This document shows, in pieces, positions 17,013-33,842 of a stretch of DNA of 64,000 nucleotides (position 1 is the first letter of the stretch; every line of letters starts with the position of its first letter). The DNA is from a bacterium. GTDB lineage: Bacteria; Electryoneota; Electryoneia; Electryoneales; Electryoneaceae. Position numbers and translations under genes: made by a program. The notes below the pieces were generated by a model, which was not told where the DNA came from, searched no databases, and was given only the letters and a program-made list of their open reading frames with translations. Where the stretch lies: positions 114,791 to 178,790 of the forward strand of contig CAXXKJ010000001.1 of NCBI GenBank assembly GCA_963675295.2, written 5' to 3'.

Positions 17013-17140
17013 CAACGCTCCAGACAGTAGCAGTCGATGACATCCTGCAACCGCCTGCCATTCGAGGCGGAGACGCCCCGGTCTCTCGAGAAATTCGACT
17101 CTCTTCAGCTGAACCCTTGACAAGCACCATCGTTCAGAGT

Positions 17141-17165
17141 ACTTTGTTCGGTGTTCGTACAAAGT
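17141..17165. promoter_or_regulatory. operator candidate ACTTTGT-N11-ACAAAGT (site 1)
   Basis: Read directly: ACTTTGTTCGGTGTTCGTACAAAGT. Confidence 0.5.
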
Positions 17166-17228
17166 GAGCGGAAAGACCTTGCCGGGTTGTCGGCGGACCC
17201 CGGCGGGCTTACGCTCAACATTTTGTTC

Positions 17229-17253
17229 TCTTTGTACGGGTAACAAACAAAGT
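17229..17253. promoter_or_regulatory. operator candidate tCTTTGT-N11-ACAAAGT (site 2)
   Basis: Read directly: TCTTTGTACGGGTAACAAACAAAGT, 126 bp upstream of the 17379 start. Confidence 0.5.
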
Positions 17254-17378
17254 GGCGCGGCAACCCGGCGGAGACGTCAACTCAACGGGATCAGATGGTT
17301 GCCGGATAAACGCAATGATGCAGCCAGGAAAACTTTAGATACGCTGATCAAAGTACGTTTACGAAGGAGAGATGCGTC

Positions 17379-19199
17379 ATGAGTAAGAAATTGGTTTTGA
17401 CAACATTGTTGCTCGGTCTGCTCACCGTTTCGGCAATGGCTCAGCCGACAAACCCGGCCCCAACCCCGACGGAACCGGCGAATGAAGTGACCTCGCTGTT
17501 CAGCGACGTCTACACGAACGTTACGGTGGACACCTGGTCCGCGGTCTGGGATGCGGCGGATGTCGAAGATGTTCTGATTCAGGGCAACCCGACCAAGCTG
17601 TACACCAACCTCGTGTTTGCCGGCATCGAATTCACCTCGCAGCCGATCGATGCTTCCACTCACACCACGTTCCACATGGACATCTGGACCCCGGATCCGA
17701 CCTCGACTCCGAACGTTTTCAAGATCAAGCTGGTCGACTTCGGTGCCGATGGCCTCTTTGGTGGTGGCGATGACAGCGAACATGAACTCGTGTTTGACGA
17801 GTTCACAGATCCGCCGTTGGTGACCGGAGAGTGGATTCAGTTTGATATTCCGATGTCCGATTTCGCCGGCCTCGCGAGCAGTGAACACCTCGCGCAGCTG
17901 ATCATTCAGGCTGATCCGGGCCCGGACACGGTTTACATGGACAACGTCTACTTCAGCGGCGTTGCCGGAACGCAGGCCGAGCCGACCGAACCGGCTCCGA
18001 CCCCGACCGAGCCGGAAGCGGAAGTCATTTCCCTGTTCAGCAACGCGTACACCGATGAACCGGTCGACACCTGGTCTGCGGACTGGGATCAGGCCACGGT
18101 GACAGACATTCAGATCGACGGCAACGAGACCAAGCTGTACACCGGTCTTGTCTTCGCTGGCATCGAGTTCACCTCGCAGGTGATCGACGTGTCCAACATG
18201 GAATATTTCCACATGGACATCTGGACCCCGGATCCGACATCTTCCCCGGCGATCTTTGAGATCAAGCTGGTTGACTTCGGTGCGGACGGCGTCTGGAGTG
18301 GTGGGGACGACAGCGAAGCGGCCATCGTCTTCGACGAATTCAGCACCCCGCCGCTGGTGTCGGAACAGTGGATCAGCTTCGACATTCCGATGGCGGATTT
18401 CGTTGGCCTGACCAACCTGACCAGCATGGCGCAGTTGGTGATCACCAGCACGCCGAACACGGTGTACATCGACAACATCTACTGGCACACCTTCATTAAC
18501 CCGCCGGCAAACTACGTGTTGACGATGGACCCGGTGACCGATCCAGTGATCGTGCCGCAGGGTGGCATGTTCTCGTTCGACATTTCGGTGACTAACAACA
18601 CACCGAACACAGGCAGCGGCAACCTGTGGACCGAAGCCGTGCTGCCGAACGGCAACACCTTCGGCCCGATCATCAACGTGACTGGTCTGACCCTCCCGGC
18701 GCAGCAGTCGTTCTACTTCACCAACCTCGCTCAGGCGATCCCGGCGGTTGCTCCGGCAGGTAACTACATCTACAAGTGCAAGATCGGGTACCCGGGCTTT
18801 GTCGTCGCGATGGATGGCTTCGCGTTCGAGGTCGTAGCCAGCGCCGGTGGTGACGCCAGCAGCTGGAACGTAAGCGGCACCGAACAGATCGAAAAGGCGA
18901 TGGATCGCGCGATGGCGAGCACGGAAGTTCCGACCGAAGCCGCGTTGATGTCGGTCTATCCGAACCCGTTCAACCCGACGACGACCGTTCAGCTGACCCT
19001 GCCGAATGTGGCGAACGTCCAGGTCAACGTGTTCAACAGCCTCGGCCAGCAGGTCGCGACGCTTGCGTCCGGTTCGCTGACCGCGGGCACCCATGCGCTG
19101 CAGTTCAACGGTGCGAACCTCGCCTCCGGGCTGTATTTCGTCCGTGCGACGGTTGACAATCAGCCGCTGGACATGCAGAAGCTGATGCTGCTGAAGTAA
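17379..19199 (+). CDS. secreted T9SS cargo protein: 2 CBM-like beta-sandwich modules + Ig-like domain + T9SS C-terminal sorting domain
   Basis: Signal peptide (..SAMAQP). Two ~165-aa modules (SLFS..YT..VDTWSA.WD...FHMDIWTPD...IKLVDFGADG..GGGDDSE...VY.DN.YF). C-terminus VYPNPFNPTTT...SGLYFVRATV..QKLMLLK. Confidence 0.85.
   Translation: MSKKLVLTTLLLGLLTVSAMAQPTNPAPTPTEPANEVTSLFSDVYTNVTVDTWSAVWDAADVEDVLIQGNPTKLYTNLVFAGIEFTSQPIDASTHTTFHMDIWTPDPTSTPNVFKIKLVDFGADGLFGGGDDSEHELVFDEFTDPPLVTGEWIQFDIPMSDFAGLASSEHLAQLIIQADPGPDTVYMDNVYFSGVAGTQAEPTEPAPTPTEPEAEVISLFSNAYTDEPVDTWSADWDQATVTDIQIDGNETKLYTGLVFAGIEFTSQVIDVSNMEYFHMDIWTPDPTSSPAIFEIKLVDFGADGVWSGGDDSEAAIVFDEFSTPPLVSEQWISFDIPMADFVGLTNLTSMAQLVITSTPNTVYIDNIYWHTFINPPANYVLTMDPVTDPVIVPQGGMFSFDISVTNNTPNTGSGNLWTEAVLPNGNTFGPIINVTGLTLPAQQSFYFTNLAQAIPAVAPAGNYIYKCKIGYPGFVVAMDGFAFEVVASAGGDASSWNVSGTEQIEKAMDRAMASTEVPTEAALMSVYPNPFNPTTTVQLTLPNVANVQVNVFNSLGQQVATLASGSLTAGTHALQFNGANLASGLYFVRATVDNQPLDMQKLMLLK
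17454..18488 (+). repeat. two tandem CBM-like coding modules (A1 17454-17960, A2 17991-18488)
   Basis: Each starts with a PAPTPTEP linker and ends VY(M/I)DN(V/I)Y(F/W). Confidence 0.8.
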
Positions 19200-19230
19200 G
19201 ACCGGAAATGGTCTGGTACTTGCATACAAT

Positions 19231-19268
19231 CCTGCCGGTCACAATCTGGCCGGCAGGTGTTTCTTTTT
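19231..19268 (+). terminator. rho-independent terminator
   Basis: CCTGCCGG-N11-CCGGCAGG followed by TGTTTCTTTTT. Confidence 0.6.
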
Positions 19269-19305
19269 GTACCAACCATTTCGGGACTCAACTGAGGAAT
19301 TGACG

Positions 19306-20727
19306 ATGAACAGGATGTTCCTTTTTGCTTTCCTGATGCTGAGTGTCGCTGTCACGCCGGTGTTCGCACAGCCGTCCGAACCCGCGCCGACACCGACTGA
19401 ACCCGCAAACGAGGTGACGTCGCTGTTCAGCAACGCCTACACTGATCAGCCGGTTGATACGTGGTCGGCGGATTGGGACATGGCGGACGTCGAAGATGTC
19501 CAGATTCAGGGCAATGACACCAAGCTGTACACCAACCTCACGTTCGCGGGGATCGAGTTTACCTCCAATACGTTGGATGTGTCCGACCATTCGCACTTCC
19601 ACATGGACATCTGGACCCCGGATGCGACAGCTTCACCGGCGGTCTTCGCGATCAAACTGGTCGATTTCGGTGCGGACGGCCTCTACGGCGGCGGTGATGA
19701 CAGCGAATCTGAGATCCCGTTCAACGAGTTCAGCGATCCGCCGCTAGTCACCGAATCCTGGATCGAATTCGACATTCCGATGTCTGATTTCTCGGCACTG
19801 ACCAACCTGACCAACATGGCGCAGCTGGTCATCTCCGGCGATCCGAACACCGTCTACGTCGACAACATCTACTTCTACGGCACCGGCGGCAGCGTCCTGC
19901 CGGAACCGACCGTCGCAGCGCCGACTCCGACCGAACCGGCGGACGAAGTCGTCTCGCTGTTCAGCAACGCCTACGACGATGTTACCGTCGACACCTGGTC
20001 CGCGGGTTGGGATAACGCGAACGTGGAAGACGTGCAGATCGCGGGCGACGACGCAAAGAAGTATACCGGCCTCGTCTTCGCCGGCATCGAGTTCACCTCG
20101 AACCCGGTGGATGCGTCCGACAAAGCCTATTTCCACATGGACATCTGGACGCCGGATGATACCGGCGCCCCCGCCGTGTTCAAGATCAAGCTGGTCGATT
20201 TCGGCGCGGATGGCCTGTTCGGCGGCGGCGATGACAGCGAATCGGAGCTGACATTCAGCGCGACCAGCGATCCGCCGCTGGTGTCAGAATCCTGGATCAG
20301 CTTCCACATCCCGCTGACCGATTTCGCTGGCCTGACCAACCTGAGCAGTATGGCTCAGCTGGTGATCTCCGGCGACCCGAACACGGTCTACGTGGACAAC
20401 ATCTACTTCAGCGATTCCTTCATGAGCGTGTCCGAACCGAATGCGGATCCTTCGCGGCCGCTGGAGTTCGCGACGGTGAATGTGTATCCGAACCCGTTCA
20501 ACCCGGCGACGACCGTCGCGTTAACCCTGCCGTACGCGGCAGACGTGCAAGTCGCTGTTTACAACGGGCTCGGCCGTCAGGTCGCGACCCTCGCGCAGGG
20601 CCGCTATGCCGCCGGAACGCACAGCCTCGCGTTTGACGGTTCCACGCTCGCGTCCGGCGTGTACCTCGTCCGGGCGACCGTCGATCAACAGCCGCTGGCG
20701 ATGCGCAAGATGCTGCTGCTGAAGTAA
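19306..20727 (+). CDS. secreted T9SS cargo protein: 2 CBM-like modules + T9SS C-terminal sorting domain
   Basis: Start at MNRMFLF (RBS GAGGAA). Same module signature twice. C-terminus VYPNPFNPATT...SGVYLVRATV..RKMLLLK. Confidence 0.85.
   Translation: MNRMFLFAFLMLSVAVTPVFAQPSEPAPTPTEPANEVTSLFSNAYTDQPVDTWSADWDMADVEDVQIQGNDTKLYTNLTFAGIEFTSNTLDVSDHSHFHMDIWTPDATASPAVFAIKLVDFGADGLYGGGDDSESEIPFNEFSDPPLVTESWIEFDIPMSDFSALTNLTNMAQLVISGDPNTVYVDNIYFYGTGGSVLPEPTVAAPTPTEPADEVVSLFSNAYDDVTVDTWSAGWDNANVEDVQIAGDDAKKYTGLVFAGIEFTSNPVDASDKAYFHMDIWTPDDTGAPAVFKIKLVDFGADGLFGGGDDSESELTFSATSDPPLVSESWISFHIPLTDFAGLTNLSSMAQLVISGDPNTVYVDNIYFSDSFMSVSEPNADPSRPLEFATVNVYPNPFNPATTVALTLPYAADVQVAVYNGLGRQVATLAQGRYAAGTHSLAFDGSTLASGVYLVRATVDQQPLAMRKMLLLK
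19381..20415 (+). repeat. two tandem CBM-like coding modules (B1 19381-19881, B2 19915-20415)
   Basis: Same module signature, with PAPTPTEP / AAPTPTEP linkers. Confidence 0.8.
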
Positions 20728-20760
20728 GCACAGCCGGACTGTGATTTCTTGCTGCAATAC

Positions 20761-20800
20761 CCTGCCGGTCCCCACGTGAGACCGGCAGGTTCTGTTTTGT
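20761..20800 (+). terminator. rho-independent terminator
   Basis: CCTGCCGGTC-N9-GACCGGCAGG followed by TTCTGTTTTGT. Confidence 0.6.
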
Positions 20801-20844
20801 ACCTTACCGTTCCCAGCGTGGGACGATAACCCGGGATCAGACCG

Positions 20845-21948
20845 ATGAACCCCTTGCCGCTGTTTGCCTCGATCATGGTGATTGTTCAACTGGCGGCGAT
20901 GCTGCTCGCTGGGGGATGCTTCCAGGCAGACAGTGGCGTCAGTCCGAATGAACCGGCATTACCTGCAGTTGGCGACAGTGTCATCGGCGACCTGAGGCTG
21001 CCGCCCGAAGTCAGCATTACCAGCGCCACTCAGTCCAGCGTTGCGGGGACGGCGGAGAACGTTCACATCGGTCTGCACCGTATCGTGCTGTACGCGAAGA
21101 CCGACCGCTGGTATGTGCAGCCGCTGACCACCGATCCATACACACTGATCGACAGCGACGGAACCTGGTCAAACTCGACCAACAGCTGGAACCGGCTGGC
21201 CGCCGTACTTGTCGAGGAGGATTTCGTGCCGGAAGCCGTGCTCACGCTGCATCCGTCCACGGAACCAGGCGTGCTCGTGTGGGACGAGGTGCCCGATTCC
21301 TCCGCGCGGACGGTGACCTTTGCTGGACGCTCGTGGCACGTGAAAATGGCCGACGAAACACGCGTCGGACCAGGCCCGAACTATTTCTCGGGCAGCGAAA
21401 ACGCGGTCCATGTGGACGGGAACGGCCTGCATCTGCGGACCGAATACCGCGACGGCAACTGGTTCAGCGCGGAGGTGTTCAGCGTGGATCCGGCCGAGTA
21501 CGGCGAGTACACCTTCGAGCTCAACAGCCGGGTCGACAATCTCGATTACAACCTCATCTTCGCCTGCTTCATCTACCAGGGCGCGAACCAGGAGATCGAC
21601 TTCGAATTTTCTCAGTCGCTGATCCCCGCCCCGGACAACGCGCAGTATGTCACCCAGCCGTGGGACTACCCGGGCAACATCGAGCGGTATCAGCTACCCG
21701 CCGGGATCAACGTGTCCACCCACCAGCTCGACTGGCGTGCGGACGCGCTCACCTTCACCAGCTGGCGCGGCCGGATCGAGGACGAATCCCCCGACAGCCT
21801 GCTGCACAACTGGACCTATACCGGACCCTACATCCCTTTGCCAGACGGTGAACGCATCCACATCAACCTGTGGTTCATCAACGGCGAAGCGCCCGTCTCA
21901 AATGAGCCGGACGAAGTCGTCGTCTCCGCCTTCACCTACCAGCCCTGA
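20845..21948 (+). CDS. putative lipoprotein with GH16-like (concanavalin-fold beta-glucanase) domain
   Basis: N-terminal LLAGGC lipobox-like motif. QEIDFEFSQ resembles the GH16 ExDxE catalytic motif (lichenase-type EIDIEF). Confidence 0.65.
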   Translation: MNPLPLFASIMVIVQLAAMLLAGGCFQADSGVSPNEPALPAVGDSVIGDLRLPPEVSITSATQSSVAGTAENVHIGLHRIVLYAKTDRWYVQPLTTDPYTLIDSDGTWSNSTNSWNRLAAVLVEEDFVPEAVLTLHPSTEPGVLVWDEVPDSSARTVTFAGRSWHVKMADETRVGPGPNYFSGSENAVHVDGNGLHLRTEYRDGNWFSAEVFSVDPAEYGEYTFELNSRVDNLDYNLIFACFIYQGANQEIDFEFSQSLIPAPDNAQYVTQPWDYPGNIERYQLPAGINVSTHQLDWRADALTFTSWRGRIEDESPDSLLHNWTYTGPYIPLPDGERIHINLWFINGEAPVSNEPDEVVVSAFTYQP

Positions 21949-22041
21949 ACAGCTTGACAGCAACGCCGGATGGACTCTCTTAACCCGCGTTTCATCCCAC
22001 AACCAACGAGGTTGCAGTTGACTTTCCGGGTGGAATGGGTT

Positions 22042-22066
22042 ACTTTGTTCGTTAAGCGAACAAAGT
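22042..22066. promoter_or_regulatory. operator candidate ACTTTGT-N11-ACAAAGT (site 3)
   Basis: ACTTTGTTCGTTAAGCGAACAAAGT (10-bp arms), 115 bp upstream of the 22181 start. Confidence 0.5.
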
Positions 22067-22180
22067 TGAATCCGGGCCAATCCGCCACTACCGGTGGAAA
22101 CTGCTGCGGACAGGTCTTCAGGCAGCGCTCATGCCGTACAGACAAGAGCACGCCTTCAGGACAGGGTGTTGGAGGACAGC

Positions 22181-24646
22181 ATGCGGATCAGATTGACTTC
22201 TTCATGGATCATCGTCACGCTTGCAGCGCTGCTGCTGATCGTGGCCGGCTGCGAACGCGAAAGCGATGTGACCAATCCGGCAACCTCGCCGGACGACGCC
22301 GACGTTTTTCTCGACGAGTTCGGTGACAATGTAACCTTCCAGGCGTTCGCTGGCTCGAAGCTGGATGCGCTCGACACTGACGCCTCGGTCGTGCATAGCG
22401 GCACACAATCCCTGATTATCACTGTCCCCGATGAGGGCAACGCCGCCGGAACCTTCGCCGGCGGGGCGTTTACCACCTCGATCGCACGTGACTTGAGCGG
22501 TTATGACGCCGTCACCTTCTGGGCGAAAGCCAGCACTCCGGCGACGCTGAACGTAGTCGGTCTTGGCAACGACAACACCGGCACCTCGTTGTACATGGCG
22601 GAGATGTACAACCTTGAGTTGACGACCTCCTGGACCAAGTTCATCGTTCCGATTCCGTTGCCGGAGAAACTGGAGGCGGAACAGGGGCTGTTCTACTTCG
22701 CCGAAGGGCCGGAGGACGGCCAGGGCTACCAGTTCTGGATTGATGATCTGCAGTTCGAAGCGATAGAGCTCAACACTCCGCAGCCGGATATCGGCACCGA
22801 GACGGTCGAAGCCGAGATCGGCGAAGAAATTGTCGTCGATATGGCGACCGTGACCTACAACATCGGTGGGAACGACTACATCCTCTGGGCGCAGCAGAAC
22901 TACTTCAGCTTCGCCTCGTCCAACACGAACGCGGTGGAAGTCGCGGAGGACGGCACGATTACCGCCGTTGGCCTCGGCACGGCGACAATCACGGCGGAAC
23001 TGGGGTCCGTTGATGCGGACGGCCAGATCACGGTCACCGTCGGCGAAGGTCCGGACCTGCCGGGTGAACCGGCACCGACTCCGACGCAGGACGCCGGAGA
23101 TGTCATCTCCATCTTCAGCAACGCATACACCAACGCCAGTGTCGACTCCTGGTCGGCTGACTGGGATGTGGCGGAGTATGCCGACCTGCAGATCGATGGC
23201 GACGATGTCAAGCAATACACTGACCTGGTGTACGCCGGAATCGACTTCTCCTCGGTGCCGATCAACGCCAGCGGGATGACCCATTTCTACATGAACCTGT
23301 GGACGCCGGTTACGGTGGATGCGTCTACCCAGTTCAAGATCAAGCTGGTCGATTTCGGCGCGGATGGGGTGTATCAGGGCGGCGACGACGTCGAATCCGA
23401 ATTGACCTTCACCACTACCAGCAGCCCGGCGCTGGTGTCCGGATCGTGGATCAAGTTCGACATTCCGCTGGTCAACTTCAGCGGCCTGGCCACGACTGAA
23501 CACGTCGCTCAGCTGATCATCTCCGGCGGGAATCTGCCGACGGTGTACGTGGACAACATCTTCTTCTACGACAGCGGCCAGATCATCACCGATCCCGAGC
23601 CGACCACACCGGCGCCAACCCCGACGCACGATGCCGGCGACGTCATCTCCCTGTTCAGTAATGCGTATGACGACGTGACCGTCGATACCTGGTCGGCCGA
23701 CTGGGATGAAGCTGAGCTGGAAGACGTGCAGATCGCCGGAAATGACACGAAGAAGTACACCGGCCTGACCGTCGCCGGAATCGAGTTCACATCGGAAACG
23801 ATTGACGCGTCCGAAATGACATACTTCCACATGGATTTCTGGACGCCGGACGCGACCTCGGATCCTGCCGCGTTCAAGATCAAGCTGGTCGATTTCGGTG
23901 CGGACGGTGCCTGGGGCGGCGATGATGACGTCGAGCACGAACTCACCTTTACCGCGAACACCGACCCGGCGCTGGAAACCACCAACTGGGTCAGCTTCGA
24001 CATTCCGTTGCAGGATTTCGCCGGCCTCACCACCACTGGCCACCTGGCGCAGTTGATCCTCTCCGGTGACCCGAACACGGTATACATCGACAACGTCTAT
24101 TTCCACGGCGGCGAAGTGATTCCGGATCCGGAACCAACCGAGGCTGCACCGGCACCGACCTACCCGGCGGCAAACGTGATCTCGCTGTTCTGCGATGAAT
24201 ACACGAACGTGCCCGTTTCCACCTGGTCGGCGGAGTGGGATGAGGCGTTCTTCGAAGATGTCCAGATCGCCGGCAACGACACGAAGAAGTATTCGATTTC
24301 CGTCTACGCCGGGATCGAGTTCCTCGATCCGACGATCGACGCGTCCGGGATGACGCACTTCCGGATGGACATCTGGACGCCGGACGATACAGCGGACCCG
24401 GCGATATTCAAAATCAAGCTGGTCGATTTCGGCGCGAACGGCGTGTGGTCGGGCGGTGACGACGTCGAGCATGAGCTCACCTACACCGCGTCCACCACGC
24501 CTGGACTGGTCACGGGATCGTGGATCACCTTCGATATCCCGCTGTCGGAGTTTACCGGGCTCGTGACAAGCGAACACATGGCTCAATTGGTTATCTCTGG
24601 GGACCTGAGTACGGTGTATGTCGACAACGTCCTCTTCCACAACTAG
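22181..24646 (+). CDS. surface lipoprotein: N-terminal CBM-like domain + Big_2 Ig-like domain + 3 CBM-like modules (glycan-binding protein candidate)
   Basis: Start at MRIRLTSS (RBS GGAGG). Lipobox LIVAGC. Big_2-like AVEVAEDGTITAVGLGTATITAE. Three module copies, each ending VY.DN..F. No T9SS tail. Confidence 0.85.
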   Translation: MRIRLTSSWIIVTLAALLLIVAGCERESDVTNPATSPDDADVFLDEFGDNVTFQAFAGSKLDALDTDASVVHSGTQSLIITVPDEGNAAGTFAGGAFTTSIARDLSGYDAVTFWAKASTPATLNVVGLGNDNTGTSLYMAEMYNLELTTSWTKFIVPIPLPEKLEAEQGLFYFAEGPEDGQGYQFWIDDLQFEAIELNTPQPDIGTETVEAEIGEEIVVDMATVTYNIGGNDYILWAQQNYFSFASSNTNAVEVAEDGTITAVGLGTATITAELGSVDADGQITVTVGEGPDLPGEPAPTPTQDAGDVISIFSNAYTNASVDSWSADWDVAEYADLQIDGDDVKQYTDLVYAGIDFSSVPINASGMTHFYMNLWTPVTVDASTQFKIKLVDFGADGVYQGGDDVESELTFTTTSSPALVSGSWIKFDIPLVNFSGLATTEHVAQLIISGGNLPTVYVDNIFFYDSGQIITDPEPTTPAPTPTHDAGDVISLFSNAYDDVTVDTWSADWDEAELEDVQIAGNDTKKYTGLTVAGIEFTSETIDASEMTYFHMDFWTPDATSDPAAFKIKLVDFGADGAWGGDDDVEHELTFTANTDPALETTNWVSFDIPLQDFAGLTTTGHLAQLILSGDPNTVYIDNVYFHGGEVIPDPEPTEAAPAPTYPAANVISLFCDEYTNVPVSTWSAEWDEAFFEDVQIAGNDTKKYSISVYAGIEFLDPTIDASGMTHFRMDIWTPDDTADPAIFKIKLVDFGANGVWSGGDDVEHELTYTASTTPGLVTGSWITFDIPLSEFTGLVTSEHMAQLVISGDLSTVYVDNVLFHN
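23069..24643 (+). repeat. three tandem CBM-like coding modules (C1 23069-23572, C2 23609-24109, C3 24143-24643)
   Basis: Same module signature, with PAPTPTQD / PAPTPTHD / AAPAPTYP linkers. Confidence 0.8.
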
Positions 24647-24663
24647 CAGAGGTTGACCCGGTC

Positions 24664-25902
24664 ATGGCCAAGCCGACGAATGGAAACGGGAAACGGTCGC
24701 GTGATGTGCTGACGCGGAACCGTCCCCTCGCGGAATCGGTGCTGCGTTTCATCTGGAAGGAAAAGCAGACCACGCGGGCGTACATCGCGAAGACGATGGA
24801 GTTGTCACGCTCGACAGCGTCCGAGATCGTGGACATGCTGCTGAAAACAGGCCTGATTGCAGAGGTCGGCGCGGGACGGTCGTCCGGCGGACGGAGGCCG
24901 ATTGTGCTCGAGTTTCAGGACAACGCGTGCAGCCTGCTCGGTGTCGATGTCGGCGCGACACACGTGTCCGTTGCCATGACCAACCTGCGCGGCAAGGTGC
25001 TGAAGTGGAAGGAAAAGCGCCACCCGGTACGCACCGACCCGACGGGCACCCGCCAGCTGGTGATCGACATGTGCGACGATATCGTCGAGTCGATGAAAGG
25101 CGTCGCCAAACCAGTCGTGCGGATCGGTGTCGCGGTGCCGAGCCCGGTTGATCCGTTGAACCCGGAATGGATCTCCGAGACCGTTATCCCGGCGTGGCAG
25201 GGCGAGAGTGGTCTAGCGGAGCTGCGGGAACGGTACGCGGTTCCGGTGCACATCGATAACGACGCGAACCTTGGCGCACTGGCCGAGATGTGGTGGGGCG
25301 CGGGACGGAATGTCAGCGACTTCGTTTACATCAAGATCGCACACGGTATCGGTGCCGGGTACATCCTCAACGGTCAGATCTACCGTGGCGCACGCGGTGT
25401 CGCCGGCGAAATGGGCCACCTGCCGATCGACCCGAGCGGCAGAAAATGTGTCTGCGGAATGCATGGCTGCCTGGCGACGTTCGTCAGCGCGCCGTCACTG
25501 GCCGAACGTGTCGTCGAGCTGCTGCCGCAGTATCCGAACAGCCTGCTCGGCCAGGTCGAACGGCGGATCTCGACCATCGTTGATGCCGCCCTGCAGGACG
25601 ATCCGCTTGCAAACCAGGTCGTCGCAGAAGTCTCGGACTACCTCAGCATTGCGATCACCGGCCTGTTCAACATGATCAACCCGAAGCTGGTCATTCTCGG
25701 CGGCGGATTGGCACGGCTGGACGAAAAACTGCTCAAGCCGATGCGGGAGAAGGTGCACAGCAGCATCCTTGTCAGCTCAGCAGCCGCCGACATTCGCTCC
25801 GGCGAACTCGGGTCGCAGACCATCGCGCTCGGCGCGGCCACCTTCGCGCTGGAAGCACTGATTACCGACCCTGAACTGTACCGAAACGGAGAGCACGGCT
25901 GA
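24664..25902 (+). CDS. ROK-family transcriptional regulator (NagC/XylR type)
   Basis: N-terminal winged HTH (TRAYIAKTMELSRSTASEIVDMLLKTGLI). ROK sugar-kinase fold with the CxCGxxGC zinc motif (CVCGMHGC). Confidence 0.9.
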   Translation: MAKPTNGNGKRSRDVLTRNRPLAESVLRFIWKEKQTTRAYIAKTMELSRSTASEIVDMLLKTGLIAEVGAGRSSGGRRPIVLEFQDNACSLLGVDVGATHVSVAMTNLRGKVLKWKEKRHPVRTDPTGTRQLVIDMCDDIVESMKGVAKPVVRIGVAVPSPVDPLNPEWISETVIPAWQGESGLAELRERYAVPVHIDNDANLGALAEMWWGAGRNVSDFVYIKIAHGIGAGYILNGQIYRGARGVAGEMGHLPIDPSGRKCVCGMHGCLATFVSAPSLAERVVELLPQYPNSLLGQVERRISTIVDAALQDDPLANQVVAEVSDYLSIAITGLFNMINPKLVILGGGLARLDEKLLKPMREKVHSSILVSSAAADIRSGELGSQTIALGAATFALEALITDPELYRNGEHG

Positions 25903-26717
25903 TGATTTCACGCTACGAGCGGCTGACGTTAACCCTGCTGATTGTAATGCTGATGAATACTACCGGCTGCACCACACCGACCGGCACCGACGGCGACACG
26001 TGGGAACTCGCGTGGCAGGACGAATTCGACGGCGACGCGGGTCAACTCCCGGACGCGTCCAAGTGGGGCTACGATATCGGCACCGACTGGGGCAACGCCC
26101 AGCTCGAGTGGGATACCGACCGGCCGGAGAATGTTTCGCTGGACGGCAACGGCAACCTCGCCATCACCGCCCGGAAGGAAAGCTACGAGGGGCAGAACTA
26201 CACCTCGGCGCGGATCGTCACCCGTGGCCTGTTCACGATGAACACCGGCCGTATCGAAGCACGGATCAAGCTGCCGATCGGCGCGGGTATCTGGCCCGCT
26301 TTCTGGCTGCTTGGCGCAAACATCAACGAAGTCAGCTGGCCGCAGTGCGGCGAGATTGACATCATGGAATACCGAGGGCAGGAGCCGAACATCGTACACG
26401 GCAGCCTGCACGGCCCGGGCTATTCCGCCGGGGACGCGTTCACCAACCGCTACGTGCTGAACAGCGGTACCTTCAACGACGATTTCCACACCTTCCGCGT
26501 GGACTGGTCGGATGACTACATCCGCTGGTTCATCGACGACATCCTGTACCAGACGATTACCATCGATCAGGTACGCGCGAAAGGCGAGTGGGTGTTCGAT
26601 CATCCCTTCTACATCATCCTGAACATCGCTGTCGGCGGTGGGTTTGTGGGACCGCCGAATGCCAGCACCGAGTTTCCGCAGACGATGCTGATCGACTGGG
26701 TGAGGGTGTACCAGTAA
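25902..26717 (+). CDS. GH16 endo-beta-1,3-glucanase (laminarinase-type) lipoprotein
   Basis: Catalytic motif GEIDIMEY. WPAFWLLG. N-terminal MNTTGC lipobox-like motif. TGATG overlap with the ROK gene. Confidence 0.9.
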   Translation: MISRYERLTLTLLIVMLMNTTGCTTPTGTDGDTWELAWQDEFDGDAGQLPDASKWGYDIGTDWGNAQLEWDTDRPENVSLDGNGNLAITARKESYEGQNYTSARIVTRGLFTMNTGRIEARIKLPIGAGIWPAFWLLGANINEVSWPQCGEIDIMEYRGQEPNIVHGSLHGPGYSAGDAFTNRYVLNSGTFNDDFHTFRVDWSDDYIRWFIDDILYQTITIDQVRAKGEWVFDHPFYIILNIAVGGGFVGPPNASTEFPQTMLIDWVRVYQ

Positions 26718-26753
26718 TCCGACACTTGGATCAACCTGCTTCGTGAGCCGTGC

Positions 26754-28202
26754 ATGGCCGCTGCCCAGTACACAACCGCACCCGAAGACCGCATTTCGAT
26801 GGGTCACCGCCTGATCTACGGGCTCGGCGGGTTTGTCAACAACCTGCTCGCCGCGGCCAGTGGCGGGATGATGATCGTGCTCAACCTCGGGCTCGGGATG
26901 AATCCGGCGCTGGTCGGGCTGCTTGGCGCACTGCCACGTCTCACCGACGCGCTCACCGATCCGTTGATGGGCTACATCTCCGATAACACCAGCACACGTT
27001 GGGGACGGCGCCGGCCTTACATCTTCTGGGGTGCCATCGCGGCGGGTATTATCTTCGCCCTCCTGTGGCAATTGCCACACGACAAGAGCGAAACCTTCTA
27101 TTTCGTCTGGTTCCTCGTCGGTTCCATCCTGTTCTACATGGGTTACACCGTGTTCGCGACGCCGTGGGTCGCGCTCGGCTACGAACTGACCCCCGATTAC
27201 CACGAACGCACCCGGCTGATGGGCACGCAGAACTTCATCAGCCAACTCGCGTATGTCGTGTCGCCGTGGTTCCTCTGGATCATGACCTACGAAGGCTTTT
27301 TCGAGGACCAGGTTACCGGCGCGGCGGGACTGGCGATCATCATCGCGGTGTTCACCATCGGCGTCGGTATCCTCCCGGCGATCATCCTGCGTGAACGGTT
27401 CAAGGAAGCGTCACTGAACGGTGAGACCAACGCGATCGCACCGAAGTCGATCCTCGCGAACCTGGTGGAATTCTTCAAGGGATTCGGCACCACGCTGAAG
27501 TCCGGCCCGTTCCTCAAGCTCGGCCTCGCCACCTTCCTCGTGTTCAATGGCTTCATCCTGATCTCGGCGTTCGCGTCGTACGTGATCATCTACTACGTCG
27601 CGGGCGGCGATCAGAACCTCGGCGCGAAGTATGCCGGTTACGCCGGGACTGTCGGCGCGGCGGGCACGTTCCTGATCATTCCACTCATCACCTGGCTGGC
27701 GACGAAGATTGGCAAACGCCGGGCGTTCTTCGTCTCGACCGGCCTCTCGATCATCGGTTACGCGCTCAAGTGGGTATGCTACACCCCGGAGAATCCGTGG
27801 CTGACCCTCGTCCCGGCGCCGTTCCTGTCCTTCAGCCTCGGCGGGCTGTTCACGCTGATGCCGTCGATGGTGGCGGACGTGGTCGATCTGGACGAGCTGA
27901 AAACGCACAAACGCCGCGAAGGGATGTACGGCTCGATCTTCTGGTGGGTGGTCAAGCTCGGCATGGCGGCGGCGCTGGCCGGCGGTGGCTACCTGTTGAA
28001 CTGGACCGGATTCGACGTCGAACTCGGCGGCAATCAGTCCGACCGCGCGCTCACCCTGATGCGCCTCGCCGACATGCTGATCCCGATTGTCACTTCACTG
28101 ATCGCGATCTGGGCGGTGTGGACGTTCCCGATCACCGAGGAGAAGGCGCACGAGGTCCGGATGGAACTCGAACGCAGACGTGGAAAACCCGGCGAAGCTT
28201 GA
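26754..28202 (+). CDS. glycoside-pentoside-hexuronide (GPH)/MFS family sugar:cation symporter
   Basis: 12-TM layout and the DPLMGYISDNTSTRWGRRRPYI signature of MelB/GPH transporters. Confidence 0.9.
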   Translation: MAAAQYTTAPEDRISMGHRLIYGLGGFVNNLLAAASGGMMIVLNLGLGMNPALVGLLGALPRLTDALTDPLMGYISDNTSTRWGRRRPYIFWGAIAAGIIFALLWQLPHDKSETFYFVWFLVGSILFYMGYTVFATPWVALGYELTPDYHERTRLMGTQNFISQLAYVVSPWFLWIMTYEGFFEDQVTGAAGLAIIIAVFTIGVGILPAIILRERFKEASLNGETNAIAPKSILANLVEFFKGFGTTLKSGPFLKLGLATFLVFNGFILISAFASYVIIYYVAGGDQNLGAKYAGYAGTVGAAGTFLIIPLITWLATKIGKRRAFFVSTGLSIIGYALKWVCYTPENPWLTLVPAPFLSFSLGGLFTLMPSMVADVVDLDELKTHKRREGMYGSIFWWVVKLGMAAALAGGGYLLNWTGFDVELGGNQSDRALTLMRLADMLIPIVTSLIAIWAVWTFPITEEKAHEVRMELERRRGKPGEA

Positions 28203-28224
28203 TCGTTGGAATTCAAGCAGCAAC

Positions 28225-28260
28225 GCGAATGCCCACCATCCTCGGACAGTGGGCATTCGC
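28225..28260. terminator. 12-bp-stem hairpin between convergent genes
   Basis: GCGAATGCCCAC-N12-GTGGGCATTCGC. Confidence 0.5.
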
Positions 28261-28298
28261 TGTATGTGAAATGCTCCGCGCTTGTACCTTCAGAGCGA

Positions 28299-30515
28299 TT
28301 ACGCCATAAGCTCAAACTCCGCACCCAGATTCGCCGTCGAATCGCCACCGATCCAGACATCAAACCAGCCCGGTTCCGCTTTGAGCCGCATGTCGCGTCC
28401 GTAAAACGCGAGGTCTTCCCTACTCAACTCAAACCGCACCCGTTTCGTCTCGCCCGGCTGCAACCGGACACGCTGGAAACCCTTCAGCTCGCGCACCGGA
28501 CGTGTCACACTGCCGGCCCGATCCCGTACATACAACTGCACCACTTCGGTGCCTTCGCGGGTGCCGATGTTCGTCACCTCCGCCGATACTGCAACCGTCT
28601 CGCCCAGCATAATCTGATCCGACTCAACCCGGATCGCGTCATACCGGAAACGGGTATAGCTCAGCCCGTACCCGAATGGCCACATCGGTGACGGATCGAC
28701 ATCGAGATGGAACGACGTATTCCCGAACGAGTGCTGCGACGCACCCTGCTCGATCTCGTCAATGTGACGCACCGACTCCGGTGTCGCGGGACGGCCGGTG
28801 TTTTTCTGCGAATAATAGATCGGGATCTGGCCGGTGACGCGGGGGAACGTCACCGTCAGCTTCCCGACCGGTTCTTCGCGGCCAAACAGCAGGTCAACAA
28901 TCGCCGGGCCCGCCATCGTGCCCGGATGCCATGCGTACAGGATCGCATCCACCGACCCAGCGACATCTTGCAACGCCAATGGCCGGCCGGCCATCACGAC
29001 CAGCACCACCGGCGTGCCAACCTTCGCGAGCTCATGAATCAGCTCAGCCTGATTGCCCGGCAAGCCGATATCCGCACGTGAATGCGCTTCGCCGCTGAGG
29101 ATCGACTCTTCGCCGAGGAACAGCAGTACCACATCCGATTGCCGTGCAGCGGCAATCGCCTCGTCGAAGCCGTCCCGCGAACGGCTGCGAGTCGTCTCCA
29201 GCGCTCGAACATGGTTGATCGTGATCCGATCGCCCGCAACCTCGCGCAACGCCTGCAACGGGGTCTGGCTCAGCGCCGGGTCACCGTCAAAGACCCACGT
29301 GCCCAGCTGTTCGTAGCCATCGTCCGCGAGCGGACCAATCACCGCGACCGACTTGACCGCGTCGGGTGACAACGGCAGCAGCCAGTCCTGATTCTTCAGC
29401 AAGACACAGCTTTCCAGCGCTGCCTGTTTCGCCAGGCCCAACGCGTCCGGGCTGCCCGGCTTCGGCACATCAACCGGGATCGTAGTGCGTTCGTCGAACA
29501 GTCCGAGCGCAAATTTCACACGCAGGACATTGGCAACCATCGCGTCGATCTGGGCGATGGTCAATCGGCCTTCGTCAACCAGGTCCGCGAGATGGTCGGC
29601 GTAGGTCCGGCTCGCCATCTCCATGTCCACACCGGCGGACGCCGCCGCGAGGGCGGATGCCTTGTCGCCATCGGTCAGGCCGTGAACCGCCAACTGCGGG
29701 ATTGATTCCCAGTCGCTGACCACCATGCCGTTGTAGCCCCACTCCTCGCGCAGGATTTTGCGCAGCAGAAAATCGTTCGCACTGGCGGGGATACCGTCCA
29801 GGTCGCTGAACGAGGTCATGAAGGTTGCGACACCCGCGTCCGCCGCCGCCTTGAACGGTGGCAGGTGGACGTTGCGCAGCTCGTTTTCCGGGATGTTTGT
29901 CGTGTTGTAGTCGCGTCCGCTCTCGCTTGCACCATAGCCGGCGAAGTGCTTTGCGCACGCCGCGACTGAGGCCGGGTCAGACAGGTCATCACCCTGGAAG
30001 CCTTCGATCATCGCTTGTCCATACAACGCGGCCAGCCACGGGTCTTCACCGAACGTTTCGGCAACACGGCCCCAGCGTGGATCGCGGCCGATGTCCAGCA
30101 TCGGGGCGTAGGTCCAGTTGACACCGGCCGCGACCGCCTCGCGCGCGGCGATCCGCGCCGTGTCGCGCACGATGTCCGGGTTCCAGCTCGCCGCCAATCC
30201 GAGGGGGATTGGGAAGACGGTCTTGAAGCCGTGAATCACGTCGCGCCCGACCAGTAACGGAATCCCGAGCCGGCTGTCCTCACGCGCGATCCGTTGAAAC
30301 TCACGGATCTGTTCCGCGCCGACTTCGTTGAGAATGCCGCCGATTTCGCCCGCGGCAATCTGGCTGTTGAACACGTCCGCCTGCTCCGGTCCGGGCGTGT
30401 TCATCACGTTCAGCTGACCGATCTTCTCCGCCAGTGTCATCCGGCTGATCAGCTCCGCGATCCGTTGCTCCAGCGTGGGCGCGACTGGTGTAAGTGTATC
30501 TGGTTCCCGTGCCAC
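28299..30515 (-). CDS. bglX: GH3 beta-glucosidase (BglX-like)
   Basis: MTLAEKIGQLN, GRDVIHGF, VVSDW nucleophile region, C-terminal FnIII-like domain. Start set at the GTG (VAREPD) preceded by GGAG, which removes the overlap with the upstream gene. Confidence 0.9.
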   Translation of the reverse strand: MAREPDTLTPVAPTLEQRIAELISRMTLAEKIGQLNVMNTPGPEQADVFNSQIAAGEIGGILNEVGAEQIREFQRIAREDSRLGIPLLVGRDVIHGFKTVFPIPLGLAASWNPDIVRDTARIAAREAVAAGVNWTYAPMLDIGRDPRWGRVAETFGEDPWLAALYGQAMIEGFQGDDLSDPASVAACAKHFAGYGASESGRDYNTTNIPENELRNVHLPPFKAAADAGVATFMTSFSDLDGIPASANDFLLRKILREEWGYNGMVVSDWESIPQLAVHGLTDGDKASALAAASAGVDMEMASRTYADHLADLVDEGRLTIAQIDAMVANVLRVKFALGLFDERTTIPVDVPKPGSPDALGLAKQAALESCVLLKNQDWLLPLSPDAVKSVAVIGPLADDGYEQLGTWVFDGDPALSQTPLQALREVAGDRITINHVRALETTRSRSRDGFDEAIAAARQSDVVLLFLGEESILSGEAHSRADIGLPGNQAELIHELAKVGTPVVLVVMAGRPLALQDVAGSVDAILYAWHPGTMAGPAIVDLLFGREEPVGKLTVTFPRVTGQIPIYYSQKNTGRPATPESVRHIDEIEQGASQHSFGNTSFHLDVDPSPMWPFGYGLSYTRFRYDAIRVESDQIMLGETVAVSAEVTNIGTREGTEVVQLYVRDRAGSVTRPVRELKGFQRVRLQPGETKRVRFELSREDLAFYGRDMRLKAEPGWFDVWIGGDSTANLGAEFELMA

Positions 30516-30535
30516 AAATACTCCGTGCTGCTCGT

Positions 30536-33500
30536 CTAGTTTCCGATGGTGAGACTCAGGTACGTGCGAATCTCCCACTCGCTGCCCTGTGACAGGCCCG
30601 GTGTTTCGGTGTCGCAGGTTACATTGCCGCTGGCGTCAACGATCGTCGCCGGGCAATACCGCGGCGAATACTGGTCGAGTGACCGCCACGTAACCCGCAC
30701 GCCAAACCGTGTCTGCGGCTCGTCAAACCACTCCGGCATCCCGACGAACGTCGACACATCACCCACCAATTGCAGCGGATACGTCAGGTTGAAGTCCTTG
30801 TGGTAATCGTACGGACCCCAGTCATTCACTTTCGCGGACGCGATGAACTTGAACGAATCCAGAATCAACCGCACGTCGCCACCGTACCGTTCGACCAGCC
30901 GGGGATCATTGCCGTTCGGCTCGCCGGTGCCGACAAATACGTTGGTCACCAGTCCGAAGCCCGGCCACGCTTTCGACACCATCCGGGAATACACTTCCCA
31001 CAGGTCACGCGCGGGCGTGGCGCCCGGGAAGGCGAATGATGTAACTCCATCCTCAAGGATGCCGATCGCCGCGTCCTGCGTCGTCGGGTGATGCTTGAAG
31101 ACAAAGCCGAGGTTGCCGGCAAACGCGGCATCTTCGCGCAGGTCGTTGTCCCAGTCGTACATCCAGGTCGCCGGGGTTGGGTCATAGGTCAGCAGGATTT
31201 CGCCTGCGGTCGTCTCACGGTTGGCCCGCACCGCGAACGCGTCGTCGAGGATGTTGCGCGGACGTCCCGGAGTGGGCACATCGCCCGGGATCGGCCCGAC
31301 AATCGGCTTCTGCCAGAGGAAGTTCGGCGCGATGGTCCAGTTGCCGATCATGTAGGTGAAGCCGGTGATCACGTTGTTCTGGTTCCCGCTGCCGGAATCG
31401 GCCAGCCGCCAGCCGGTGAAGGTCTGCACCGCCGTCGGACCTCCATCTGCCACCAGCCCCATCGAGGCGGCCTGCAGGTACCAGTTCCAACGGCCATACG
31501 AGAACGTGAACTTGACCTTGCCGCCGAAAGTGTCTGTATCCTTGATCTCGTCCTGCAACACGGTGTAGTTGCCGGAAGACCCTTCGACGAACTGGAAGGA
31601 GTCGCCGATTCGTTCGCGCCCACCGACGATCCCACCGATCTGAATTCCGAACGGACCCTTTTCCGTCTCGAGCGCCAGGGTCACCTTCTCCGTCGAGGGG
31701 GACGGGATCGCGATGGAACTGACCGCCGCGTCACGCTGCTCGAGGTCGCGCTGGTATACTGCCGATGCCAGCACCGGGCCAATATCATACTGATACTTCG
31801 CCAGCACCGCCGGGTTCGCACCCCACCACAACTGCGGACCGAATGCCAACACCAGGTTGTTCAACGCACGCTTGCCAGCCACCTCGAAACCAACCGGCGC
31901 CTCACCGTTGTAGATGTCGATGTTCTCGCCGTAATTCGCCTCACGGTACAGGCCGAAGAAGTCGCCCTCATACCCCCAGTGATAATGCCCGGTGCGGTAG
32001 AACCCGTCCAGATTGAACCAGTGATCCTCCCAGTGGATGCTCGCCTGGTACAGTTTCACCCGCTCGACGTCGGTCAACTCTTTGGTGCCGGAGGTGGTTT
32101 GTACCGTCACCGGACGGCCGCGATTCTCGTAGAAGATCTCGTCGATCGGGTTGGTCGGCACGTTGCCGAGGATGTTAAGCGTCGCATATCCGGTTACGTT
32201 GTCCGCCGGAGTCGCCTCGAACGTGGTGTACACCGACTGCATGTGATCGAAGCCGAGGAACGCGGGGTAGGTATCGCTGGTCGACGACGGCTGGTCCGGT
32301 GTGCTGATGTTCGTCCCGCCGGTGCTGTACGTTTCCATATCGACCCGTAAGCCGCTCAACCGTACCCGGCGCAGGGTTTCCGTCTGTAGCGCGGCCTTGT
32401 CGGAACGCGCCTCGAGCGTCGCGCCGAGCGGATTGATATTCGCGAAATGCGCGTTGATCTCCGCCAGACCGACCTCCGGCGCGTACGGGTTCAGCTCATG
32501 CGCCTGCTTCAACGCATAGTACGCCGCGCGCGGATACAGCTGGTAAATCCCCGCGCTGTTCGGCATGCCCTTGGCGCAAATACCCCACCACTCCTCATTC
32601 ATGTTGTTTTCGCCCGGAATGAAGTCGTCGGGGTAGCCGTCGTTGGGCCAGGACGCGTTGATATCATGCACTTCCAGGTTGCTGGTCTGCTCGAATTTCC
32701 ACCAGCCGTCGCTGAACTGGAAAGTCATCCCGCCGATGGAGTTGTCCGCGAGGCCGTGCCCGGCGGCGTTCGCGTAAATCTCCCGCCACTGGCTGATCAG
32801 GTACCGTGCCTGCATCTGTTGATCTTCGCTCAACGTTTTCGCGTTGAACGCGTCCGAACCGAACTCGGTGAACACAATCGGCACACCCAGCTTCTCCTTG
32901 ACCACCTCAAATGCGTCACGGAAGGAATACCCGCGGTACATGTTGGTGCCGAAAATGTCGAGGTTGCCCGCCTCGGACGCGATCAGGTCGATGTACTGCA
33001 CGTCCCCGTTGGCGATGGCGACGGGACGCATGTCGTCGATGCCGTGAATCGCGTCGATGATCTCACCGTACAGGGAATAGAGGTAACGCGCGCGGGCGGT
33101 GTCACGTTCGCCTTCCGGCAACGCTTCGGTCTCGGCCGAGGACCACGTCAGCCCATAGTTGTTCTCGTTGCCGAGCAGCCACATCAGGATGCCGGGCGTG
33201 TCCCGATACTGTTCGACCAGGCCGGTGATCTCGTCCTTGAGCGAGGCACGGGTCAGCTCGTCCGAATAGTCTGTGCTCGGGATGTACAAGCCGTCAATCG
33301 TGACACCATACCGGCCCATCGGATGGTTCAGCACGGTGTAAATGCCGTAGGTCTCGTAAATGTACTGCACCCACTCGGGTGGGACACCGACATACTGCCG
33401 GATCACATTCACGCCCATGTTCTTCAGCAGCAGCATCTCACCGTGCAACGCCTCCCGGATCACCTCTTCCGGTTGATTCCACAAGGCGTAGTTGTAGTTG

Positions 33501-33718
33501 TCGCCGATCGGGATGTAGTCCCAGTTCATCCCGTTGATGATGAAGTCCTCACCGTTCACCTGCAGCCGTGACCCGCTGGCGTCATTCACCACCTGCACCC
33601 GGTCAACACCGGCCAGCGCCGGGAGGGCAACACCGAGGATCAGCAGTGCCAGCAACAGCAACAGGCTACGTCCACGCAATCCCGCTGCACGGTTCCGGTT
33701 CGCCGTAAGGATTCCCAT
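30536..33718 (-). CDS. secreted clan GH-A (TIM-barrel) glycosidase fused to a ~650-aa beta-strand-rich C-terminal domain of unknown function
   Basis: Signal peptide (LLLLLALLILGVALPALAG). WLLGNENNY (acid/base NE) and VFTEFGSD (nucleophile E). The remainder shows alternating aromatic/Gly-rich strand-like segments. Confidence 0.8.
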   Translation of the reverse strand: MGILTANRNRAAGLRGRSLLLLLALLILGVALPALAGVDRVQVVNDASGSRLQVNGEDFIINGMNWDYIPIGDNYNYALWNQPEEVIREALHGEMLLLKNMGVNVIRQYVGVPPEWVQYIYETYGIYTVLNHPMGRYGVTIDGLYIPSTDYSDELTRASLKDEITGLVEQYRDTPGILMWLLGNENNYGLTWSSAETEALPEGERDTARARYLYSLYGEIIDAIHGIDDMRPVAIANGDVQYIDLIASEAGNLDIFGTNMYRGYSFRDAFEVVKEKLGVPIVFTEFGSDAFNAKTLSEDQQMQARYLISQWREIYANAAGHGLADNSIGGMTFQFSDGWWKFEQTSNLEVHDINASWPNDGYPDDFIPGENNMNEEWWGICAKGMPNSAGIYQLYPRAAYYALKQAHELNPYAPEVGLAEINAHFANINPLGATLEARSDKAALQTETLRRVRLSGLRVDMETYSTGGTNISTPDQPSSTSDTYPAFLGFDHMQSVYTTFEATPADNVTGYATLNILGNVPTNPIDEIFYENRGRPVTVQTTSGTKELTDVERVKLYQASIHWEDHWFNLDGFYRTGHYHWGYEGDFFGLYREANYGENIDIYNGEAPVGFEVAGKRALNNLVLAFGPQLWWGANPAVLAKYQYDIGPVLASAVYQRDLEQRDAAVSSIAIPSPSTEKVTLALETEKGPFGIQIGGIVGGRERIGDSFQFVEGSSGNYTVLQDEIKDTDTFGGKVKFTFSYGRWNWYLQAASMGLVADGGPTAVQTFTGWRLADSGSGNQNNVITGFTYMIGNWTIAPNFLWQKPIVGPIPGDVPTPGRPRNILDDAFAVRANRETTAGEILLTYDPTPATWMYDWDNDLREDAAFAGNLGFVFKHHPTTQDAAIGILEDGVTSFAFPGATPARDLWEVYSRMVSKAWPGFGLVTNVFVGTGEPNGNDPRLVERYGGDVRLILDSFKFIASAKVNDWGPYDYHKDFNLTYPLQLVGDVSTFVGMPEWFDEPQTRFGVRVTWRSLDQYSPRYCPATIVDASGNVTCDTETPGLSQGSEWEIRTYLSLTIGN

Positions 33719-33817
33719 CGCATACTCCCAGCAAAATCGCCCACGAATCCCCGGCGCTGTTGACGCTTTCAACGTCACCTACCGCCCGGACTCGAGGCCG
33801 GCCACGTCCCCAACGGG

Positions 33818-33842
33818 ACTTTGTTTTCTTGCCGAACAAAGT
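33818..33842. promoter_or_regulatory. operator candidate ACTTTGT-N11-ACAAAGT (site 4)
   Basis: ACTTTGTTTTCTTGCCGAACAAAGT, about 100 bp upstream of the minus-strand start at 33718. Confidence 0.5.

Follow-up and report, generated by a model that had tools for sequence, protein, structure and literature searches.

ROK-family repressors bind palindromic operators of 23-25 bp (PMC3553997; PMC12034463). In the operators of NagC and Mlc of Escherichia coli the sole invariant positions are TT/AA at ±5,6, and C/G at ±11 is associated with the GGRR linker of NagC and with high-affinity NagC sites (PMC4288165). The operator xylO of Bacillus subtilis, TTAGTTTGTTTGGGCAACAAACTAA, is made of ten palindromic base pairs, five central ones and ten more (Gartner et al. 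1992, cited in PMC12034463). In Thermotoga maritima, a laminarin/beta-glucoside operon is under the control of the ROK repressor BglR (TM0032; Kazanov et al. 2013, PMC3553997); glucose and cellobiose relieve its binding in vitro. Here we describe a 25-bp palindrome that recurs in front of the transcription units of a beta-glucan locus in a 64,000-nucleotide stretch of DNA (hereafter the window; positions are those of the window) from a bacterium of the family Electryoneaceae, assembly GCA_963675295.2. Judging from its sequence, position and conservation, this palindrome very probably serves as operator for the ROK-family repressor whose gene is at 24664-25902 of the same window.

A search of the 64-kb window with the pattern ACTTTGT-N11-ACAAAGT, allowing up to two mismatches, returns exactly four matches, whereas dinucleotide-preserving shuffles of the window gave 0.11 matches on average and never four. 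Two of the sites, the candidate operators O1 (site 1; 17141-17165, 0 mismatches, ACTTTGTTCGGTGTTCGTACAAAGT, 35.0 bits with the weight matrix described below) and O2 (site 2; 17229-17253, 1 mismatch, TCTTTGTACGGGTAACAAACAAAGT, 30.5 bits), stand 214 and 126 nt upstream of the ATG of gene 17379. They are 88 bp apart, with O2 being the downstream one, in the presumed 5' leader of gene 17379. Site 3 (22042-22066, 0 mismatches, ACTTTGTTCGTTAAGCGAACAAAGT, 37.8 bits), the top-scoring site of the whole genome, is the candidate operator of an operon encoding a lipoprotein, the ROK protein, a glycoside hydrolase (GH) of family GH16 and a GPH symporter; its end is 114 nt from the lipoprotein ATG at 22181. 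Site 4 (33818-33842, 0 mismatches, 32.6 bits) is the candidate operator of the GH-A/GH3 operon. On the minus strand the sequence reads TTGACT-N17-TACTTTGTTCGGCAAGAAAACAAAGT, and the site is located 99 nt before the minus-strand ATG at 33718; the terminator of the gene upstream of it is at 33965-33940. The earlier note had placed four 25-bp sites at these coordinates, and they are there letter for letter, with the distances to the start codons agreeing as well.

The protein encoded at 24664-25902 has a Pfam ROK match of 2.2e-60 and a weak match to a MarR-type helix-turn-helix (HTH). Among solved structures, the ROK repressors Lmo0178, VC2007 and Mlc come closest, with full-length matches that span residues 25-393. 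Thus, an N-terminal winged HTH is fused to a ROK sugar-kinase-like domain, as expected of a ROK repressor. The glycine/arginine-rich linker SSGGRRP is conserved in three aligned orthologues and agrees with the rule of a GR pair behind the recognition helix (PMC4288165). Only one other ROK gene is present in the genome; its product has 322 residues and lacks an HTH, so that the protein from the window is the only ROK regulator of this genome. The zinc and sugar-site motifs GEMGH, CVCGMHGC and IDNDAN are all present. By comparison with the listed zinc motif H...CxCGxxGCxE/D and the sugar-binding residues N-D and ExxH (PMC3553997), the zinc cysteines, N199-D200 and E249/H252 are kept. The final Glu of CxCGxxGCxE, which contacts the 1'-OH of the sugar, is Ala here (GCLAT). 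The pocket residues hint that a glucose-type ligand would be compatible, which might carry a substituent at O1 as laminaribiose does. With the Glu that contacts the 1'-OH replaced by Ala, sensing of laminaribiose would fit, and the sensor may read this beta-linked disaccharide rather than glucose. The ATP motif of the kinases, DxGxT, is also kept (DVGAT), whereas most Thermotoga ROK regulators have lost it.

Among the described systems, BglR is the closest functional analogue. This ROK repressor is autoregulated and has as its operator a palindrome of about 23 bp, immediately in front of a beta-glucan operon. The BglR host is a hyperthermophile with ABC transport, whereas the locus described here encodes type IX secretion system (T9SS) cargo, lipoproteins and a GPH symporter, and BglR controls one operon, whereas five units are proposed here. 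The BglR operator, AATTTCTTTCTGAGGAAGATAGA, is unrelated in sequence to the window motif; comparison of the operator motifs thus sets the locus outside the Thermotoga BglR regulog. NagC and Mlc have the same protein architecture as the window ROK protein, and theirs are its best NCBIfam models. It is far from reaching the equivalog cut-offs of either (202.2 vs 650 bits for NagC, 150.3 vs 530 bits for Mlc), and both assignments were rejected. Like the window sites, the operators of NagC and Mlc are quasi-palindromes with TT/AA at ±5,6, and the window operator agrees with the NagC-type rule (T at -6/-5, A at +5/+6, C/G at ±11, linker SSGGRRP). The outer arm sequence differs, and so does the regulon, which is beta-glucan here and amino sugars or phosphotransferase-system glucose there.

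The earlier note had likened the palindrome to the Bacillus xyl operator, and this holds in part. Both are 25 bp long with a 10-5-10 layout and a TTTGTT/AACAAA core, and both overlap the promoter of a sugar operon. The spacing of the cores does not agree: they are separated by 5 nt in xylO and by 9 nt in the window sites, i.e. shifted by 2 bp on each side relative to the Bacillus-type XylR/xylO operator TTAGTTTGTT-N5-AACAAACTAA, and the NagC/Mlc rule fits better (PMC4288165). The effector of XylR is xylose, and the closest XylR structure, 4ija, matches the window ROK protein at only 3e-23.

The placement of the sites on promoters is regular. Among 61 non-redundant sites, 48 have at least five of the six bases of TTGACA ending 18-21 nt upstream of the first base of the 25-mer. 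The exact hexamer occurs 38 times at these gaps and 7 times at all other positions within the 115 nt scanned to either side. A generic promoter scan misses these promoters, as TACTTT has only three of the six bases of TATAAT, and the distances to TTGACA were therefore counted directly. In the window, site 1 lies on the promoter TTGACA (17118-17123)-N17-TACTTT and site 3 on TTGACT (22018-22023)-N17-TACTTT, with the operator overlapping the -10 box in both cases; on the minus strand, site 4 lies on TTGACT-N17-TACTTT. The left arm supplies most of the -10 hexamer, the palindrome reaches to about +14 and its centre falls near the inferred start site. Since the palindrome covers both the -10 box and the start site, its occupant would have to compete with RNA polymerase and should therefore be a repressor. 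O2 differs in having no -35 box in the direction of gene 17379, an arrangement found again in the related genome G002 (see below). On the minus strand of O2, a TTGACG ends 21 nt upstream (17229-17290) and points at the 3' end of a sigma-54 activator gene; this layout, which matches that of the real promoters, may reflect an antisense promoter or be due to chance.

The conserved palindrome is longer than the search pattern. The full motif is aCTTTGTTCG-N5-CGAACAAAGt, with 10-bp arms and a 23-bp core. To describe it, a weight matrix was built from 50 sites, all of which come from genomes other than that of the window (G000; two contigs, 4.81 Mb, 58% G+C). Three columns outside the search pattern, T at -5, C at -4 and G at -3, carry 0.9-1.1 bits each, and the column frequencies of T at -6, T at -5 and C at -11 are 0.91, 0.82 and 0.90. 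A scan of G000 with this matrix finds exactly six sites, at 27.8-37.8 bits, and the next best scores 14.1. Five of them match the pattern with at most one mismatch (the four of the window and C2:1705044), while the sixth, C2:186009, has two mismatches and the same inner bases TTC...CGAA. All six sites are in intergenic DNA, 80-215 nt upstream of genes for a carbohydrate-binding module (CBM) protein, GH16, GH-A/GH3, a GH16-like protein or DUF4185 proteins. The genome-wide scan proposed in the earlier note thus came out in its favour: every site precedes glycan genes, and the motif is not scattered over non-promoter positions. The statement that there is no full site elsewhere is right for the window; the genome as a whole has two more.

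Site 5 (C2:1705044; stretch C2:1702155-1705149) is located 80 nt before a gene for a GH16-like T9SS protein, in a divergent intergenic region that this gene shares with a minus-strand gene for a GH13 alpha-amylase-family protein of 885 aa. This alpha-glucan enzyme might share the control. Site 6 (C2:186009) lies 126 nt before two DUF4185 genes, which are followed by a gene for a LamG-like protein. Of the products encoded downstream of it (C2:186009-191504), one DUF4185 protein is T9SS-tailed and a 684-aa protein has a weak LamG match. Site 6 would thus bring proteins of unknown substrate into a beta-glucan regulon.

Conservation in other genomes was assessed within the phylum and in metagenomes. 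In G002, which belongs to the same genus, a 52%-identical ROK protein is encoded in a syntenic operon (lipoprotein, ROK, GH16, GPH, GH-A, GH3) whose products are 52-77% identical to those of the window. The intergenic DNA has diverged, yet a promoter of the form TTGACA-N17-AACTTT has kept a perfect site. In front of the divergent orthologue of gene 17379 there are two further sites, spaced 84 bp apart, which correspond to the O1/O2 pair. Two extra matches in G002 (20-21.6 bits), one in dnaK and one at the end of a GNAT gene, were taken as chance. In G013, a member of the same family, the lipoprotein orthologue with two sites before it is found at the end of one contig, and a GH16 fragment, GPH, GH-A and GH3 at the end of another (contigs C511 and C234). 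The absence of the ROK gene from this assembly is evidently a gap, with the locus split over two contig ends where ROK would be expected. G001 and G003 lack ROK, GH16, GH-A and the motif altogether. Outside G000, G002 and G013, a phylum-wide scan with the pattern gave matches at the level of the control.

Beyond the phylum, a metagenome-assembled genome (MAG) of the Rhodothermales has ACTCTGTTCGGAATGCGAACAAAGT 66 nt before a ROK-GPH operon whose ROK protein is 45% identical. In metagenomes, 80 loci with ROK orthologues (about 40-62% identical) contain 46 sites in 616 kb, compared with one for the reversed pattern. The motif precedes the orthologous loci in about 40 of them, so that, together with G002 and the Rhodothermales MAG, the check suggested in the earlier note, a look for the motif before orthologous loci of related genomes, came out in favour. 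The conserved cassette comprises the CBM lipoprotein, ROK, GH16 and GPH, plus GH-A and GH3. Sites are placed ahead of its first gene, ahead of divergent partner genes or, where ROK comes first, directly before ROK. Where ROK identity is at least 49% and upstream DNA is available, sites are found at no fewer than 30 of 41 loci, which is a lower bound. ROK orthologues with 41-43% identity have a variant operator, AGTTCGTTCG-N5-TGAACGAAGC; at L122:729, L126:281 and L127:1226 it reads A(G/C)TTCGTTCG-N5-TGAAC(G/C)A(A/G)G(C/T).

Together, these results point to the following mechanism. One ROK dimer would occupy each palindrome, with one winged HTH and its glycine/arginine linker per half-site, and would exclude RNA polymerase from the TTGACA-N17-TACTTT promoters. 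Three units in the window would be shut off in this way, namely the secreted CBM-protein gene or genes, the lipoprotein-ROK-GH16-GPH operon and the GH-A/GH3 operon, as well as two elsewhere in the genome, the second GH16-like gene and the DUF4185 pair. When a breakdown product of beta-glucan enters the cell and fills the sugar pocket, the repressor would release its operators and the regulon would be expressed; candidate inducers are glucose or a beta-linked gluco-oligosaccharide such as laminaribiose. The sites, their exclusivity in the genome, their conservation beside ROK orthologues and their fixed place on the promoter are observed, whereas binding by ROK, the sign of regulation and the effector are inferred. 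As the ROK gene is inside the operon headed by site 3, it follows that ROK would be autoregulated; this part of the earlier proposal, that an autoregulated ROK protein controls the beta-glucan locus, finds support in the presence of sites on the promoters of that locus. The paired O1 and O2 recall NagC, which has two operators about 90 bp apart that loop; cooperation or looping of O1 and O2 at the first promoter is speculation.

Several observations weigh against control by the ROK repressor. Neither site 5 nor site 6 has a clear TTGACA box or a counterpart in G002, and both are specific to the genome of the window. The genomes of the phylum that lack ROK also lack the entire locus and do not separate ROK from any other factor linked to it. 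At the threshold used, no site is seen at many of the loci whose ROK identity is 47% or less. On the other hand, the variant operator and the missing sites in the distant group are what co-evolution of regulator and operator would give. Finally, the metagenome loci were collected by their ROK gene, and the co-occurrence is partly by design.

This last point, as the association of sites and ROK is to that extent circular, leaves some room for a different binder. The palindrome could be a real operator that is bound by another factor, either the sigma-54 PAS activator encoded at 15705-17012 or a regulator encoded elsewhere. The activator gene ends 129 nt before site 1, upstream sites of the form TGT-N10/11-ACA are common in the family of this activator, and the arms of the palindrome include TGT...ACA. 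However, no -24/-12 promoter is present downstream of any site, and no relative of the activator is encoded at any of the 81 ROK loci. The sites are on the -10/+1 region of sigma-70-type promoters rather than at an upstream activator position, a site directly precedes ROK where ROK is the first gene, and the operator geometry and the linker agree with the ROK rule. We therefore consider another binder improbable.

A second explanation, even less probable, is that the palindrome is a core-promoter element (-10 or extended -10) shared by co-expressed genes, with no repressor involved. The left arm does provide the -10 hexamer TACTTT at a fixed distance from TTGACA. However, no promoter role falls to the second arm or the inner TTCG/CGAA, which are as conserved as the first arm, O2 and its G002 counterpart lie downstream of a promoter with no -35 box in the direction of the gene, and only six such sites exist in 4.8 Mb. 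The idea that the inverted repeat acts as an RNA or DNA hairpin (attenuator, terminator or processing site) rather than a protein-binding site is hardly tenable: although 10-bp perfect arms with a 5-nt loop could fold and site 2 would be transcribed in full, only 5 of the 144 departures from a consensus pair in 63 distinct sites keep Watson-Crick pairing, which shows that the sequence rather than the pairing is conserved, most sites straddle the inferred start site so that only half is transcribed, and no T-run follows the sites.

The proposed O1/O2 target (17379-19199, plus strand) encodes a T9SS-secreted protein with two CBM-like modules, and is followed by a second gene for a T9SS CBM-module protein (19267-20727, plus strand) and by a lipoprotein gene (20845-21948, plus strand). 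No Pfam glycan domain was found in the products of these first-operon genes. A module of about 160 aa is present seven times across three proteins of the window. Its structural model (pLDDT 95.7) is a beta-sandwich, and the best solved matches are CBM11 bound to beta-1,3-1,4-glucan, then CBM30, CBM8 and CBM29, with TM scores of 0.6-0.69. The predicted fold, which resembles CBM11/CBM30, supports the designation of CBM-module genes given in the earlier note. Directly after gene 17379-19199, at 19231-19257, there is a strong 11-bp hairpin with a T-run. The genes at 19267-21948 may be in one transcription unit with 17379-19199; because of this hairpin, they may depend on read-through or on an unseen promoter. 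The lipoprotein at 20845-21948 has 367 aa, no Pfam match and, in its C-terminal part, the motif EIDFEF, similar to the catalytic ExDxE of beta-jelly-roll hydrolases of the GH16/lichenase type. The protein may be a glycanase that belongs to the regulon and has escaped recognition.

The ROK operon begins with a gene (22181-24646, plus strand) for a lipoprotein with three CBM-like modules; this gene is syntenic in about 60 loci. The start at 22181, which carries the lipoprotein signal, is in frame with the open reading frame 22094-24646. It is followed on the same strand by the ROK-family regulator (P0001, 412 aa; 24664-25902) with its winged HTH, SSGGRRP linker and ROK sugar-binding domain, by a GH16 lipoprotein with the laminarinase-type catalytic motif EIDIME (25902-26717) and by a GPH/MFS_2 glycoside:cation symporter (26754-28202). 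On the minus strand, a GH3 beta-glucosidase that passes the BglX equivalog cut-off (28299-30578) is in the same operon as a GH-A TIM-barrel glycosidase of 1060 aa (30536-33718). A sequence search of solved structures gave no match for the 1060-aa glycosidase or the lipoprotein.

A literature search that combined ROK, laminarin, GH16 and repressor found no description of this regulon. Identity across the Rhodothermales MAG and many metagenome contigs is about 40-62% for ROK and up to about 85% for GPH, and the TTGACA-N17-operator fusion is always present. These identities and the constancy of the fusion across lineages favour mobility of the cassette. As a tentative reading that we hold to be possible, though on balance unlikely, promoter, operator, repressor and beta-glucan genes might have moved horizontally as one cassette between phyla of the FCB group, with a ROK protein that would read a disaccharide of the laminaribiose type and not glucose.

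The proposed switch is a conventional, if well-supported, bacterial sugar switch for genes of beta-glucan (laminarin-type) degradation. It offers a testable regulon for beta-glucan use, with six operators and five transcription units, in an uncultured T9SS-bearing lineage without SusC/SusD-type loci. The variant operators provide a natural series for studying the co-evolution of regulator and operator, and the ROK/operator pair could be put to use as a sugar-inducible switch. Laminarin being a major pool of carbon in the sea, the operator signature helps to annotate unnamed proteins in metagenomes, among them the CBM11/30-like module proteins, the 1060-aa glycosidase and the DUF4185 pair.

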